Part shown: positions 35,481-40,570 of the stretch, piece after piece | Position numbering within the stretch: the stretch's first letter is position 1 | Layout: the number at the start of each line of letters is the position of its first letter | IMG/VR virus record: IMGVR_UViG_3300050019_000017 | Span: 1-49,447 of that record | DNA length: 49,447 nt | DNA from: a virus | Reading direction: 5' to 3' (one strand) | Notes under the pieces: model-generated | Database searches by the model: none | The model's input: only the letters and a program-made list of their open reading frames with translations | What the model was told of the DNA's origin: nothing | Made by a program: the position numbers and the translations under genes

Positions 35481-35660
35481 TTATGCATCGCGTGTTACAC
35501 CGCGTTTTCTAATTTCATTTACCATATCTATCAACCCTCGTCTAAGTTCAAGTGTTTTACTCATAAATTCTTTTCCAACATCATCAGCCATAATCATATT
35601 GATACCTTGTAATATGGCTAATTGTGAACGAAACAAAAGTTCTTTTTCACGTCGCATCAT
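35481..35660 (-). CDS. hypothetical protein
   Basis: ORF track gives 35481..35675. The ATG at 35660 overlaps the polymerase stop (ATGA). Confidence 0.4.
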   Translation of the reverse strand: MMRREKELLFRSQLAILQGINMIMADDVGKEFMSKTLELRRGLIDMVNEIRKRGVTRDA

Positions 35661-37666
35661 TCTATGTCTCCCCATGTAGGTCCGCGTCCTACTGTAAACT
35701 TGATTGGTACACGTAACGGCAAACTGGTTTGCATGATGTGTCTCAAATAAGCATGGGCTTCATTCCGAATAGGACTATCATCAATCACGCTATGATCGTT
35801 CTCATCATGTACCGTAAGTGTGGGAACACCTGTAACAGCATAGACACCTTCATTCCATGCTCTGAGCATTCCTGTTTTCATAATGTCACCTTCGCCACCT
35901 TGTAAAGTGCCACTGATAGCAGAATGTGTCATAGCTCGCTTAATCATTTGTCCATATTGTCTAAGTGCCCATTCATACGGTAATGGCTTTGCACGATTCT
36001 CATAATTTGTATCTCTAGGTTCCCACAAGTTGAATCTGAATCTGCGTCCTAATAAGCTTTTGACATAACCTAGTGTGTCTGCCTGTCCCGCTAACATATC
36101 CATAGTAGCTTTCATATATGGTGCTGCTTCGTGTGAGGCACTAAAGATAATATCCGCGATAGCTTGCGGTACGTTTAGCATACGTTTGACTTTCTTTTTA
36201 CCCGCTCCAAACATAGTACCAAAATTGAAATTCTTAATGGGCTTGCGTTTCACTTCAATACCGGCAATCTTCTGTACAAGATCATGGGCACGATCATGGT
36301 AGTCAGTATCAGGATTGGTGTTGTAGTCTGCTCGTAGTTCATCGCTTCCTTTACCTACCGCGATATGAGCTAAAATACGATATTGTAATTGGCTGAAGTC
36401 ACCCTTTTCCCAACATAGATGCCCTTCAAATGGAACAAAGATTTTGCGTATCTCATTACCAAGATCAGCAGGTAGATCAAACTTAATTAGATTGTCATCT
36501 TCGCGTACCGGGATGTTTTGTAGGTTAGGATTGGAGCTAGATAAACGTCCTACTCTTGTTCCACCTTCATCAGAGCGCAATGGGTGAAATTCACCATGTA
36601 TAATACCATTTATATTTCCATCTAGGATATAAGACTTTAGAAAGGTATTATGAAGTATCTCAAGCTTGCGAATAGCTAAGACAAGATCAGCAATAGGATG
36701 ATCTAACCCTTGAAGCCATTCTTTTGCAAAGCTTGGATTCCCTTTTTCCGTTTGCGGCGGGGTGACGTTAATTGCTTTGAATATCTTTTGAATGTCTCCG
36801 CCTGTTGTTGATTCCGCTCTAACACCTGTTTCAGTATAGATTCGTTCGTACAGTTTGTTAATTTGAGGACCGATTCGTCCATACATTTCCTCTGCTTTCT
36901 TTACGTCAACTCTCACACCTTGCCGTCGCATTGCTACCCACAACCGGATTAGATCACATTCCATCCGGTATATGTGTCCTAACCCTTCGGCTTGAAGTGT
37001 TCGCCACTGTGCTTTGATTATTTGAATAGGTAGGCTTGAATCAACTTCGGCATAAGGTCCAACTAGCCGGGGTGAACAGCGGTATATATTTTCACGTTGC
37101 TTACCTGTAGCTTCGCCGCCATAAGCATCAGCGGACCATTGATACAGTATGTTAGATTCTTTACCACGTTTCAGGTATTTATCACCAAGATAATCAAGGT
37201 CAACAAAGCCGGATTCGTCAAGCAATGCTTCTGAGAATTGGCAATCGTGTAATTCTCCCGCCACTTCAATTCCGTCATCGGCAAGGTTTCCAGTATCATA
37301 GATGAGATTAGCCCCAAATTTCGGTATGGGCATTTGAAGAACTTCCGCGAGAAACGCATCAACCTTTTCCGGGTCAAGATTATACTCCGGTTCTACTTCA
37401 TGGTACTTGGGAAAGTACCAGCTTTTCATTGTACCGTCGCGCCAATAGCCTGTTACTGAGGCTCCTACAACCTTAGCCTTACCACGTGACCATCCGGGTC
37501 CGTGGTCTATGTCCATTTCTTTTTCTTCGGAGTCAATACCGAGTAGGATACACTGGCTTAGGTTGGGAAATTCTTTCGGCGGCAACCATCCGGTTTCCGG
37601 CGTGGTAGGCAGTTGCTTTAGAACGGTACGCTTCCGCTCTGTCAAATCTATGTCGTCAAAGAACAT
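35657..37666 (-). CDS. family A DNA polymerase
   Basis: RKPIKNFNFGTMFGAG (motif B), LTVHDEN (motif C) and an N-terminal exonuclease-like GIDSEE. 669 aa. Confidence 0.9.
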   Translation of the reverse strand: MFFDDIDLTERKRTVLKQLPTTPETGWLPPKEFPNLSQCILLGIDSEEKEMDIDHGPGWSRGKAKVVGASVTGYWRDGTMKSWYFPKYHEVEPEYNLDPEKVDAFLAEVLQMPIPKFGANLIYDTGNLADDGIEVAGELHDCQFSEALLDESGFVDLDYLGDKYLKRGKESNILYQWSADAYGGEATGKQRENIYRCSPRLVGPYAEVDSSLPIQIIKAQWRTLQAEGLGHIYRMECDLIRLWVAMRRQGVRVDVKKAEEMYGRIGPQINKLYERIYTETGVRAESTTGGDIQKIFKAINVTPPQTEKGNPSFAKEWLQGLDHPIADLVLAIRKLEILHNTFLKSYILDGNINGIIHGEFHPLRSDEGGTRVGRLSSSNPNLQNIPVREDDNLIKFDLPADLGNEIRKIFVPFEGHLCWEKGDFSQLQYRILAHIAVGKGSDELRADYNTNPDTDYHDRAHDLVQKIAGIEVKRKPIKNFNFGTMFGAGKKKVKRMLNVPQAIADIIFSASHEAAPYMKATMDMLAGQADTLGYVKSLLGRRFRFNLWEPRDTNYENRAKPLPYEWALRQYGQMIKRAMTHSAISGTLQGGEGDIMKTGMLRAWNEGVYAVTGVPTLTVHDENDHSVIDDSPIRNEAHAYLRHIMQTSLPLRVPIKFTVGRGPTWGDIE

Positions 37667-38400
37667 TGGGTAAAGTGCTCATTTATCACTTTGGCAAAAA
37701 CGAAAGGAATAGCTGGAATAACTGCATTACCTAATACTTTGAATCTGTCCAATTCAACGGATAACCCATCAATAGCTCTAGGAATTGTGGATTCAATACC
37801 CCATGATCCACACAATTGTCGGGCCATTTCCCATATTTTGCCATTTGCCAAAGCGAATTGTAACCACCCCATTTTTGTGCATTGGCATTCTTGTTTGGTG
37901 CTGCATAAGCAGCGCAAGGTGTCGGTAGCCACGATCCAGATTCTATCTCTCGTATGAGGGGCGCTAAGATAGGAAGCTGAAACACAATGCCATTCTGCAT
38001 CATACCGGAGCGCGGCCAAGTCCCATAATACTTTCTCGAATACGTCTGTATCTTTATTTCTAATGGTACTGACATTTTCAATAAAGATACATTTAGGTCT
38101 AAGCTCACTAATAATTCGTGCCATTTCTGACCATAATGATGTACGATTGCCACTTAAACCTAATCTCTTTCCCGCTGTACTAACATCTTGACAAGGAAAA
38201 CCCCCTACTAGACAATTAACAGGTTTCAAATTTATTGCTTGTCTAATATCCTTAATCCGCAAAGTGTTAGGCCAACGTTTTTCCAAAATATGATTACAAA
38301 AAGGGTCAATTTCAACTTGCCATTCAATAGTAAAACCAGCTTGTTGAAATCCCAAATCAATGCCGCCTATTCCAGTAAACAGTGATCCAATGGTAGGCAT
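37648..38400 (-). CDS. DNA (cytosine-5)-methyltransferase
   Basis: FTGIGG, GGFPCQDVS, FIENV, SAPHTRDRIWIVA and KVLGNAVIP occur in order. The ATG at 38400 overlaps the upstream stop (TAATG). See the finding on the nested +1 ORF. Confidence 0.8.
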   Translation of the reverse strand: MPTIGSLFTGIGGIDLGFQQAGFTIEWQVEIDPFCNHILEKRWPNTLRIKDIRQAINLKPVNCLVGGFPCQDVSTAGKRLGLSGNRTSLWSEMARIISELRPKCIFIENVSTIRNKDTDVFEKVLWDLAALRYDAEWHCVSASYLSAPHTRDRIWIVATDTLRCLCSTKQECQCTKMGWLQFALANGKIWEMARQLCGSWGIESTIPRAIDGLSVELDRFKVLGNAVIPAIPFVFAKVINEHFTQCSLTT

Positions 38401-39467
38401 TAGAAGGGTATGCAGTTTCCACAACAAGGTTTGCCGTCACAACATCCACCGTCGCGACACGATTGACAATCTTCTTTACTGTACTTGTTGAATACTTGAT
38501 GCTGGATACAACCACGAAATTTGTCACCTATGAACATAGTACGATCATGCAACGTTGCTGAATAGTGAGTAGCTATCTTACAAACGTCCATCAGTGCTTT
38601 TATGTTATAAATACGTGGTTGCATGAACTGTGAAATTGTTTTGGTTTCAGCAGTATCATCATTTGCTTCAACCTTGTTTCCGTTACACAGTACCGTACCA
38701 TCTTTGCAGAACGGTGCTATACATTTCAATGCAGGTAACAGGTCTGCTGGAAATTCAATACTGCTCTCACTACCGTCAAGATAGTTTGTTACTCCCATCG
38801 GCCATGCTTCTTTGTACAACTGCGTTTTGATCCAACTTTGATCGCTAAAATGAAACGTCATGGATTGTTCACCATACCCAACTGCTACCAGTTCCTTGCC
38901 ACATTTCAATACGGCGGCAACTCCTGCCTTTGGGAGTACAACTGTGGGCAGAGTATAACCATGCCAAGCTTCTAAAATGACTGTTCGATCCGTGGCGATC
39001 GCACTCCCCGGTCCAAGCTGAATACTGGCCGTCAAGACGTGTTCCGCCTTATCCCCGGCGAGTGGGGCAACGATTCGCAAAGCGTCTGTGACGGCTGTTC
39101 CCACAGCAAGCGTAGCTGCGTCGGGCTGCGCTGAGACAAGCGATCCCGGCTTGAGACAAGGGATAGAGGCTTGGAAGTCGCCAGAGCGCACCAGAAGGCT
39201 TGCAGGGGGTATTTGCGTGAGGCTGTAATCCTCTCCGCAACGGTCCATTGCCAGAATCAGATTCAGAGTTTCAGGACAGGCAACAAGATCATTGTTGATT
39301 ATGATTCCCGCACCTAAAATACCGTCAAAAGCCGTGGCGGTCCATCCACCTAAAACACAGTGCGTTTGACCGTCATTGCCCTTGTGACGTTGGGCACAGG
39401 CGATGAAACGTAGTGCGTCAAGGAACGGTTTAGTTACTACGTCTTTTTTCTTACGTCCGCGTGGCAT
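38400..39467 (-). CDS. sliding-clamp-like (DNA pol III beta-like) protein with a Cys-rich tail
   Basis: 355 aa in the replication operon with a weak overall resemblance to phage beta-clamp-like proteins. The C-terminus is CQSCRDGGCCDGKPCCGNCIPF. Confidence 0.35.
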   Translation of the reverse strand: MPRGRKKKDVVTKPFLDALRFIACAQRHKGNDGQTHCVLGGWTATAFDGILGAGIIINNDLVACPETLNLILAMDRCGEDYSLTQIPPASLLVRSGDFQASIPCLKPGSLVSAQPDAATLAVGTAVTDALRIVAPLAGDKAEHVLTASIQLGPGSAIATDRTVILEAWHGYTLPTVVLPKAGVAAVLKCGKELVAVGYGEQSMTFHFSDQSWIKTQLYKEAWPMGVTNYLDGSESSIEFPADLLPALKCIAPFCKDGTVLCNGNKVEANDDTAETKTISQFMQPRIYNIKALMDVCKIATHYSATLHDRTMFIGDKFRGCIQHQVFNKYSKEDCQSCRDGGCCDGKPCCGNCIPF

Positions 39468-39686
39468 TTATGCTACCAATATTTGAGTTGCTTGTGTAAT
39501 GAAGCTTTTTAGATCATCTTCCGTCCAACCTTGATCTGGCTTTTCTTCTTTCAATTCAGCTACTGCGCGTTTAATAGCATCCATTGGTGCTGATGCCATA
39601 ACTTGAAAGGTATATTCATGGATACGTGCAAATGTTACGATGTATAAGTTTGTTTTGAGTAATTCTAACTTGGTAGGCTTATCCAT
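39468..39686 (-). CDS. hypothetical protein
   Basis: 72-aa ORF packed between neighbouring genes. Confidence 0.45.
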   Translation of the reverse strand: MDKPTKLELLKTNLYIVTFARIHEYTFQVMASAPMDAIKRAVAELKEEKPDQGWTEDDLKSFITQATQILVA

Positions 39687-40570
39687 TGTTCACATCCTTT
39701 CGCTATAAAATCGGCTGGTATGTTTTGTTGATAGTGATTGCAGAACCATTGTTCACCATCAACCGGCTGTGCATACTGACAACTACGGCAATTCTTATCT
39801 GGTGCTGCACTGAAATGACAAATAGTTTGTGCAGGACAAAACCTACATTCATAATATGATGGATTTTCTGATAGGCGACGTGGCGGAACATTAGATAGGA
39901 TTATGAACTCTGCTTTTCGTTCTTGTTCTTCTGCAAATTCCCAATCCAATTCTTCCAATTCAATGTCCCAATCATCATCATTTTTATCTTCGCATATATA
40001 GAGAATATAATGTAAATCAAGCTTACGCCCATAACTACAAGCTTGCGCCCAATGATGCGGCTTACCTTTAATAAATCCTTGCGAACTGATACGTCCATAC
40101 CAATTCGCGTTTGCAGTTTTAAATTCGACAAGTAATCGCTCAGAAAAGCTACCATAACGAATAGGCAACCTAGTGTTACTGTCAATAGAGCCACCATAAT
40201 GTCCGCCGATGCTTCTTGCGACATGAATTTGTTCTCCATCAATAGTGTGTGATTCAATTTCAAAACCTATGCCGGTTAAAATTCCAATAGCTATCTTTTC
40301 AAATATGTCACCACGTTGGAATAATCTAGCCATGCGTCCATCAAATTTCTCTTGAACCATCCAACGAAACTTATACCAAACATATCTAGCACAGCTATGC
40401 CCTATTTCAGAAATACCTAAATGAGTCCGCCGTTCATCTAATAATGTTTGTTGACAGTAAGAATCAACATCCTTCTTAATCTGTGTAGCAATGTCATCAC
40501 GTCCTGCTCTGTTATAAAGATCAAACGTCAAAGTAGGATTGATAGGCGGGGGTGTGTATGGCTTAGTCAT
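39665..40570 (-). CDS. PD-(D/E)XK exonuclease (Cas4/RecB-like) with a C-terminal Cys cluster
   Basis: GGSIDS...LLVEFKT core plus the CRFC...C...CRSC Cys cluster. Confidence 0.65.
   Translation of the reverse strand: MTKPYTPPPINPTLTFDLYNRAGRDDIATQIKKDVDSYCQQTLLDERRTHLGISEIGHSCARYVWYKFRWMVQEKFDGRMARLFQRGDIFEKIAIGILTGIGFEIESHTIDGEQIHVARSIGGHYGGSIDSNTRLPIRYGSFSERLLVEFKTANANWYGRISSQGFIKGKPHHWAQACSYGRKLDLHYILYICEDKNDDDWDIELEELDWEFAEEQERKAEFIILSNVPPRRLSENPSYYECRFCPAQTICHFSAAPDKNCRSCQYAQPVDGEQWFCNHYQQNIPADFIAKGCEQWISLPS

Follow-up and report, generated by a model that had tools for sequence, protein, structure and literature searches.

Nested same-strand genes in an IMG/VR virus probably encode a two-chain C5-methyltransferase of the M.EcoHK31I type

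The DNA considered here, hereafter the window, is a stretch of 49,447 nucleotides from a virus (IMG/VR record IMGVR_UViG_3300050019_000017, positions 1 to 49,447), the minus strand of which carries a C5-methyltransferase gene, termed alpha (37648..38400, read in frame A), and, wholly within it, a 140-codon open reading frame (ORF) in the +1 frame, termed beta (37731..38153). Judging from the two gene sequences and by analogy to a characterized enzyme, we propose, with a probability of roughly 0.8, that this locus specifies a heterodimeric alpha/beta C5-methyltransferase of the M.EcoHK31I type, encoded by two same-strand genes, one of which is nested in the other. The dual coding itself is genuine: both ORFs are conserved, purifying selection acts on each of them within its own segment, and each is kept open in the segment of the other. 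A genuinely dual-coding segment was among the possibilities raised by an earlier, sequence-only reading of this DNA, and it is the one that stands, with both frames selected and kept open in all relatives.

Briefly, we advance the following mechanism. Translation of alpha would begin at the ATG at 38400 and continue without a break to the alpha stop, such that the 59 residues between its motifs VIII and X (TDTLRC...SVEL) would form a read-through linker with a sequence dictated by the beta frame. Selection on this linker would demand only that it be free of stops, leaving alpha as a catalytic domain with a stop-free tether. Beta (140 aa) would be made separately from an internal +1 start, the GTG at 38153, and would supply a variable, target-recognition-like region (LPTP...) followed by a motif IX-like element (LNPxFxELLMGYPxxWTD), these two parts being the likely counterpart of the small domain of the monomeric C5-methyltransferases. 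The two chains would then associate physically into the active enzyme; by analogy, both would be needed for activity, with target recognition probably falling to beta.

The two frames of the locus

The elements of the locus, all on the minus strand, are as follows.

37648..38400, minus strand: alpha, predicted C5-methyltransferase catalytic subunit with motifs I-VIII and X, 250 aa from an ATG
38362-38379, minus strand: motif I of alpha, FTGIGG, read directly
38179-38205, minus strand: motif IV of alpha, GGFPCQDVS, read directly
38071-38085, minus strand: motif VI of alpha, FIENV, read directly
37927..37965, minus strand: motif VIII of alpha, SAPHTRDRIWIVA; at its 3' end selection passes from the alpha frame to that of beta
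37750..37926, minus strand: putative read-through linker of alpha, residues 159-217, TDTLRCLCSTKQ...GLSVEL; translated, with its sequence set by beta
37714..37749, minus strand: motif X region of alpha, DRFKVLGNAVIP; alpha-only selection restarts exactly at the end of beta
37731..38153, minus strand: beta, +1 ORF of 140 aa with a GTG start and a TAG stop, wholly inside alpha
38159..38173, minus strand: purine-rich, Shine-Dalgarno-like stretch, GGGAAAGAG ... AGG, the AGG lying 5 nt before the GTG
38151..38153, minus strand: proposed GTG start codon of beta; ATG at the same position in the two closest relatives
38022..38153, minus strand: N-terminal arm of beta, residues 1-44, overlapping the motif IV-to-VI region of alpha and mostly an alpha "shadow"
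37743..38021, minus strand: core of beta, residues 45-137, TWPRSGMMQNG ... WLPTPCA ... VLNPQFLELLMGYPLNWTD; under dual constraint and beta-selected
37743..37799, minus strand: motif IX-like element of beta, VLNPQFLELLMGYPLNWTD; 68% identity to LNPNWVEWLMGYPLGWTD of the database protein P0004
37731..37733, minus strand: TAG stop of beta, straddling alpha codons L223 and G224, the L and G of LGNAV

The sequence-only reading had placed the methyltransferase motifs of frame A in canonical order, with Cys/Trp/Gln-rich text between motifs VIII and X, and the coordinates and reads bear this out. Alpha is recognized by PF00145 of Pfam with E=8.8e-43, in a match confined to residues 4-160 and to positions 3-162 of the 324 in the profile, and by phrog_363 with E=1.8e-60 over residues 1-241. 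A profile of alpha matches M.HhaI at 3e-38, covering residues 13-318 of the latter, i.e., the N-terminal half and motif X, including FGNSVV. The combination that defines a single-chain enzyme, namely the large domain, target-recognition domain (TRD), motif IX and motif X in one polypeptide, is not found in alpha. The methyltransferase of prophage CP-933R (3G7U) was considered as a solved member of the family and rejected, since the alpha profile matches its N-terminal half only. The AlphaFold2 (AF2) model of alpha, computed from a 60-sequence alignment, has a predicted local distance difference test score (pLDDT) of 79 and a predicted template modeling score (pTM) of 0.79. The pLDDT exceeds 90 for residues 1-160 and 230-250, lies between 40 and 70 for residues 161-229 and falls below 50 for residues 199-224. 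Foldseek aligns the model with M.HhaI and M.HaeIII at E ~5e-14 over 161-171 columns, which correspond to the catalytic large domain. The alpha string at the position of motif IX is a codon shadow of beta, with a pLDDT below 50.

The beta ORF, with a GC content of 0.42, is the longest same-strand off-frame nested ORF within the window, as had been claimed from the letters for the AT-rich parts; the next, at 39901..40263, reaches 120 aa and has no family hit. The further observation that it ends on the L-G codons of LGNAV was likewise accurate, the TAG straddling both. Its text runs ...TWPRSGMMQNG...WLPTPCA...VLNPQFLELLMGYPLNWTDSKY up to the stop, with TWPRSGMMQNGIVFQLPILAPLIREIESGSWLPTPCAAYAAPNKNANAQKWGGYNSLWQMAKYGKWPDNCVDHGVLNPQFLELLMGYPLNWTDSKY as its very end, and includes beta-specific peptide stretches such as SGMMQNGIVFQLPILAPLIR and WGGYNSLWQMAK. 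A further ATG stands in frame at codon 27 of beta. In the window as well as in the loci L001 and L002, the first beta start lies 45 codons upstream of W46 and the stop occupies an identical position. At the site of the purine-rich stretch of the window L001 and L002 have AGGA/AGGT, and this stretch may, from its sequence and position, play a Shine-Dalgarno-like role in the initiation of beta.

An exhaustive phmmer scan of 1.84 billion protein cluster representatives with the 96-aa +1 peptide recovered 2467 of them at E<=1e-3 (best 6.6e-20), and the 140-aa ORF matches phrog_1008 with E=1.9e-17, a family different from the phrog_363 of alpha. A hidden Markov model (HMM) of the beta family matches the +1 ORF of the window with E=3e-40. 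By the measure of these sequence comparisons, the +1 ORF is far beyond chance. A word-indexed protein search with the same 96-aa peptide returned no candidates; Pfam has no match in the +1 ORF, and a frame-spliced chimera is matched in its N-terminal half only. Running a C5-methyltransferase profile over both translations, as had been suggested, is uninformative, since PF00145 is blind to the +1 frame and reaches no further than residue 160 in frame A.

Selection and recurrence in the family

The frame under selection emerges from a codon alignment of three genes, that of the window and those of its two nearest relatives (P0001-P0003). Only 4 of 73 frame-A fourfold sites differ in the beta core (TWPRSG..WTD; 0.05), as against 41 of 73 upstream of the beta start (0.56), 11 of 26 along the N-terminal arm of beta (0.42) and 13 of 21 past the beta stop (0.62). 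Within the core, differences at alpha codon positions 1, 2 and 3 stand at 0.21, 0.08 and 0.09, respectively, alpha position 1 being position 3 of beta. When the substitutions are sorted into synonymous and nonsynonymous, the variable region (LPTP to G118) gives 28:32 in the beta frame and 9:51 in that of alpha, and the motif IX-like part 8:7 and 0:15. The beta-selected segment consequently shows 47-53% of substitutions as synonymous in beta versus 0-15% in alpha, whereas the alpha-only control region gives 44:165 off frame and 95:114 in frame (alpha). These counts by frame indicate that the selected frame between motifs VIII and X is that of beta, with alpha there behaving as an off-frame reading. 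Aligning homologues at the nucleotide level to find the selected frame was a check put forward with the sequence-only reading, and this is its outcome. Further, in both relatives the +1 frame is open too, with ATG starts and the stop at the positions of the window, and among the three the conservation of the +1 peptide equals or exceeds that of frame A.

To survey the wider family, a beta HMM was built from 15 phmmer hits and all six frames of related loci were scanned with it. It matches a +1 ORF nested in alpha in 84 of 84 alpha-selected loci (E 1e-22 to 1e-65), comprising 80 IMG/VR contigs with 33-52% alpha identity, a Porphyromonas phage, the Microcystis phage Mwe-JY08 and the two close relatives, all picked by tblastn to full-length alpha. 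It likewise matches a nested +1 ORF in 80/80 beta-selected loci from bacterial genomes of many phyla; alpha is complete in 62 of these 80, most of the others being cut by contig ends. The relative frame of the nested beta is +1 in every locus. A profile search shows at least 5615 database proteins to be beta calls, almost all of which bear the name "hypothetical protein" and lack a Pfam domain. The notion that these constitute a standalone small-protein family was entertained and rejected, both because their S[PRL][AV][KR]T motif is the codon shadow of the alpha FPCQD and because the members followed to their contigs (3/3; L085, L086 and L087) each sit inside a complete, uncalled alpha ORF.

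Per-codon-position entropy over 81 non-identical loci resolves the locus into segments with distinct coding burdens. Columns 1-122, and again those from column 220 (R.K.LGNAVVPQ), are alpha-only coding: position 3 of alpha is free (~1.8-2.0 bits) in this mode, and its entropy (H3) returns to 1.5-1.9 bits from column 220. The N-terminal arm of beta is most variable across the family at beta codon position 2 (alpha position 3) and shows little beta-specific constraint. A beta-specific patch then appears at P-R-S-G(-M-M), upstream of motif VIII, with H3=0.26 at the alpha G130 codon. Motif VIII itself is alpha dominant; at its 3' end, where alpha reads ..IVA and beta LPTP, the roles are exchanged. 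From PTP to WTD beta dominates, as exemplified by T102 of beta with an amino-acid entropy of 0.10 and a third position of 1.77 bits, and alpha codon position 1 is the most variable. In the motif IX-like element the third codon position of beta is free and there is next to no variation at M155, E152, G156 and P158. The conserved alpha residues of this stretch (E, P/S, V, R, V, A, D/N/H/Y, G, V, P, R, V, D) are the exact -1 shadow of the beta LNP.F.EWLMGFP.GWTD, the D/N/H/Y position being NAT, read over the ATG of beta.

Each frame is, moreover, kept open where the other is selected. Alpha is open across the beta-dominant segment in 75/75 loci versus 10.5 expected from synonymous permutation of the beta codons, and the third frame in 0/75; for the alpha of the window itself, the chance of staying open there is less than 1/300. 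Reciprocally, the +1 frame is open upstream of W(PRSG) for a mean of 94.6 codons versus 33.7 expected from synonymous permutation of the alpha codons, and in AT-rich loci for 74.2 versus 15.6. An ATG occurs in this upstream +1 frame in 77/80 loci versus 28.9 expected, with the first beta start usually 76-87 codons upstream of W(PRSG), and 45 in the clade of the window.

A few loci and proteins depart from the common layout. A beta C-terminal-like ORF (L067:1492-1810; family HMM positions 98-183, E=1e-11) lies outside any methyltransferase ORF, 1.2 kb upstream of the alpha/beta gene of the same locus; no other beta-like sequence was encountered outside an alpha gene. In P0004 (435 aa), a complete alpha is followed in the same frame, past motif X, by a beta-like WPTPC...LNPNWVEWLMGYPLGWTD module; P0121 has alpha motifs I-VI fused in frame to the C-terminal half of beta, without motif VIII or X; and P0124 has motif I fused to the whole of beta in a single frame. 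These single-frame variants could be real fusions or indel artefacts. In L153 and L155, from Kitasatospora sp. NPDC002040, the alpha ORF stops ~540 nt before the end of the nested beta ORF, with alpha HMM positions 7-166 alone matched, pointing to a variant architecture or a decayed alpha. Finally, the nested arrangement was seen in metagenome-assembled genomes (MAGs) of a Candidatus Woesearchaeota archaeon (L150) and of Saccharibacteria (L103 and L107), though these contigs may be prophage or viral and mis-binned.

Precedents and competing explanations

M.EcoHK31I consists of an alpha chain of 309 aa and a beta chain of 176 aa. With a start 76-87 codons upstream and a core of ~95 residues, the beta of most relatives studied here would come to ~170-180 aa, comparable to the beta of that enzyme. 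M.EcoHK31I, from E. coli HK31 with the target YGGCCR, is an alpha/beta C5-methyltransferase credited to Lee, Kam and Shaw 1995 in passages of two later articles (PMC2836561, PMC3404938). Its beta is coded wholly inside the alpha gene, on the same strand in another frame, with motifs I-VIII and X on alpha and IX on beta, and its activity needs the association of the chains (PMC2836561, PMC3404938). DNA is methylated in vivo when the two chains are supplied from separate plasmids, and activity is lost once the beta start codons are removed (PMC2836561). Beta can do without its first 42 residues in vitro and can be initiated at internal Met codons (PMC2836561, PMC3404938). The locus of the window presents the same architecture, i.e., a single ORF for a large subunit bearing motifs I-VIII and X, inside which the small-subunit gene lies in its entirety on the same strand in the +1 frame; moreover, the dispensable beta N-terminus of M.EcoHK31I (~40 residues) finds a parallel in the 44-residue arm without beta-specific constraint. 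The locus differs in its place in a phage replication module, in the lack of a neighboring restriction enzyme and in the shortness of its beta (140 aa, with a GTG start). The sequence-only reading was judged right in seeing target-recognition and motif IX-like text in the +1 frame, but the M.EcoHK31I precedent went unrecognized.

Other known systems share some of these features. M.AquI, from the cyanobacterium Agmenellum quadruplicatum/Synechococcus, is a two-chain C5-methyltransferase with consecutive genes, the small subunit of which comprises the distal variable region with motifs IX and X (PMC3404938). It resembles the present case as a natural two-chain enzyme split within the variable region, but in the present locus alpha retains motif X and the whole of beta is nested. 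The M.AquI genes, for their part, overlap only slightly. With the monomeric M.HhaI and M.HaeIII (PF00145), alpha shares the catalytic large domain (motifs I, IV, VI, VIII and X) and the locus shares the coding order of motifs I-VIII, variable region, IX (here IX-like) and X; unlike in them, the variable region and the motif IX-like element are read in another frame, as what would be a separate chain. In the dcm-vsr overlap of E. coli, a second gene also begins +1 inside a C5-methyltransferase gene, but the overlap covers a few codons at the 3' end only and Vsr is an unrelated repair endonuclease. An alternate-frame ORF inside a phage methylase gene, with the host frame open and predicted to loop out, is also seen in the ShiLan-type arrangement, in which out-of-frame HNH endonucleases are inserted in actinophage methylase genes as sporadic mobile homing elements (PMC11855218). 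We rejected beta as an element of this type, for it shows no HNH signature, occurs in all family members examined and occupies the small-domain position of the methyltransferase.

Several observations weigh against a two-chain enzyme of this type. The AF2 model of beta by itself has a pLDDT of only 57, too low to support a fold search, and the beta profile has no match among PDB sequences even at E<=10. Its sole hhalign alignment to M.HhaI covers motif IX (residues 265-289) and is non-significant (E=0.1). In the face of no significant structural match, the label "small domain" for beta derives from gene position, motif resemblance and precedent. The likeness to M.EcoHK31I is one of architecture rather than of compared sequences; further, the published model of that enzyme places the TRD on alpha, whereas in the present locus it is the beta frame that is under selection across the variable region between motifs VIII and X. 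In the window taken by itself, the upstream +1 openness is not significant (P=0.18), and the start of beta is a GTG with only a modest AGG upstream. Picking loci by tblastn with full-length alpha could modestly favor those with an open alpha.

Among the competing explanations, that of artefact or decay, by which two assembly indels or a compensated double frameshift have left a crippled or pseudogenized methyltransferase with +1 as its ancestral frame, has next to no probability. It would account for the frame-A text between motifs VIII and X, which resembles an out-of-frame translation and is predicted to be unstructured. However, the same two-frame layout recurs in more than 160 independently assembled loci (33-52% alpha identity) drawn from IMG/VR, GenBank phages, Logan, ENA and GTDB genomes, and this recurrence excludes the assembly indels and compensated frameshift that had been raised as a possibility; both frames are, moreover, open far past expectation, with purifying selection on the beta core and the alpha flanks. 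A single canonical polypeptide made by two programmed frameshifts, +1 near 37925 and -1 near 37740, with the TRD and motif IX in the +1 frame, is very unlikely, though the sequence-only reading that offered it had placed both frame-switch points correctly. Indeed, the amino-acid-selected frame switches exactly at these two points, and the spliced chimera would be colinear with a monomeric C5-methyltransferase (I-VIII, variable, IX-like, X). The translation mechanism is where it errs: a frameshifting ribosome needs no stop-free alpha through the +1 segment, which 75/75 loci have against 10.5 expected, nor a +1 frame that is open and furnished with an ATG at 45-87 codons ahead of the presumed shift, and it leaves aside the +1-specific constraint at P-R-S-G, upstream of motif VIII. 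Further, each of the three close relatives has different nucleotides at the second switch point (GATTCAAAGTATTAG, GATTTAAGAGTTTAG and GATATAAAAGTTTAG), such that no conserved slippery site is found among them at either switch point, and the activity of M.EcoHK31I is reconstituted from separately expressed chains.

A less extreme use of frameshifting would have beta made by a +1 slip from alpha upstream of WPRSG, yielding a fusion of the alpha N-terminus to beta beside alpha itself, as in dnaX or the phage G/GT proteins. The abrupt onset of beta-specific constraint at T-W-P-R-S-G, with the +1 arm upstream little constrained, would suit such a slip, as would the single-frame database proteins P0121 and P0124, which join the alpha N-terminus to beta; the latter two are, however, single metagenome-contig sequences and possibly indel artefacts. 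We consider this explanation unlikely, given that slipping has no need of a +1 frame open with an ATG well upstream of WPRSG (77/80 loci), that the start codon position is conserved in the clade of the window, and that M.EcoHK31I loses its activity without the beta start codons. It appears about equally improbable that beta is an overprinted protein of unrelated function, such as a regulator or anti-defense factor, with alpha alone as a complete enzyme. Beta has no significant similarity to solved methyltransferases and no Pfam family, and alpha does retain a weak motif IX-like string (EP.V.RVA.G.P), both of which would fit. Against this, that string is an exact codon shadow of the beta motif, is free at alpha position 1 and is predicted to be disordered; alpha has no selected variable region of its own, and thus no evident means of target recognition; beta sits exactly at the small-domain coding position of the monomeric enzymes and is nested in alpha in 167/167 loci, the single outside case being the C-terminal fragment L067:1492-1810; and M.EcoHK31I provides an experimental precedent.

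Returning to the nested alpha/beta enzyme, the occurrence of beta solely within alpha, save for that fragment, is what overprinting predicts. As to its origin, the placement of beta in the ancestral small-domain slot together with its motif IX-like element makes the frame displacement of an older coding sequence at least as likely as the birth of beta by de novo overprinting.

Breadth, annotation and genomic surroundings

The above results lead to the question of how widely the arrangement extends. In our estimate the chances are about even that a nested beta is no peculiarity of one E. coli restriction-modification system but an obligatory trait, of ancient origin, in a very large family of C5-methyltransferases from phages and prophages, with thousands of members across most bacterial phyla. 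In this family the entire target-recognizing small domain, variable region and motif IX together, would be encoded in the +1 frame, and alpha would read that stretch as a stop-free tether and nothing more. Were this true, few families of long (140-340 codon) same-strand nested genes in prokaryotes and phages would be as large or as old, and this one is almost wholly unannotated. The nested two-chain architecture is already known from M.EcoHK31I, and it is its breadth and the beta-encoded variable region that may be unreported; we found no paper calling the nested arrangement widespread in phage methyltransferases, in a literature search that was incomplete.

The public annotation bears on this directly. 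The JGI gene call for the window (P0001) and its relatives P0002 and P0003 have frame A only, odd text included; the PGAP-annotated plasmid records H41-H43 contain the arrangement with only alpha annotated; and in the metagenome or genome contigs L085, L086 and L087 the converse holds, beta being called "hypothetical protein" and the complete alpha methyltransferase being dropped. As standard gene callers are unable to list two long genes that overlap on one strand and keep a single frame, either beta or the methyltransferase goes missing from annotations, and the methylome-to-gene assignments and catalogues of phage anti-restriction functions built from them are incomplete. If target recognition does reside on beta, specificity predictions made from the "variable region" of alpha would be using the wrong frame. 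The locus is also an unusually clean case of natural long dual coding, running from alpha-only through dual and beta-dominant back to alpha-only, and its quantifiable constraint map should be useful for testing methods that detect overlapping genes. Further, natural split methyltransferases serve as scaffolds for targeted methylation (PMC2836561), and the family offers thousands of alpha/beta pairs for engineering.

In the window, the alpha/beta gene lies in a minus-strand replication module of closely coupled genes, the stops and starts of neighbors overlapping.

39665..40570, minus strand: Cas4-domain exonuclease (phrog_1990, E=1.4e-79)
38400..39467, minus strand: processivity-factor-like protein, 355 aa (phrog_947, DNA polymerase processivity factor, E=1.8e-32, residues 13-275)
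35657..37666, minus strand: family A DNA polymerase

The start of alpha shares nucleotides with the stop of the processivity-factor-like gene (TAATG, 38398..38402, minus strand), and the first 19 nt of the family A DNA polymerase gene double as the end of alpha (37648..37666, minus strand). The 355-aa processivity-factor-like protein has a Cys-rich C-terminal tail, CQSCRDGGCCDGKPCCGNCIPF (~38403..38470), outside the profile match. The second-longest nested +1 ORF of the window, that of 120 aa at 39901..40263 on the minus strand, lies inside the Cas4-domain exonuclease gene; it has no Pfam or PHROG match and is probably a product of chance. In relatives, the neighboring genes (L002:1501-2741 and L086:3702-5743) encode NADAR and YAcAr (PF10686) domain proteins and a Mom-like protein (PF25680), which suggests a DNA-modification or anti-defense neighborhood.

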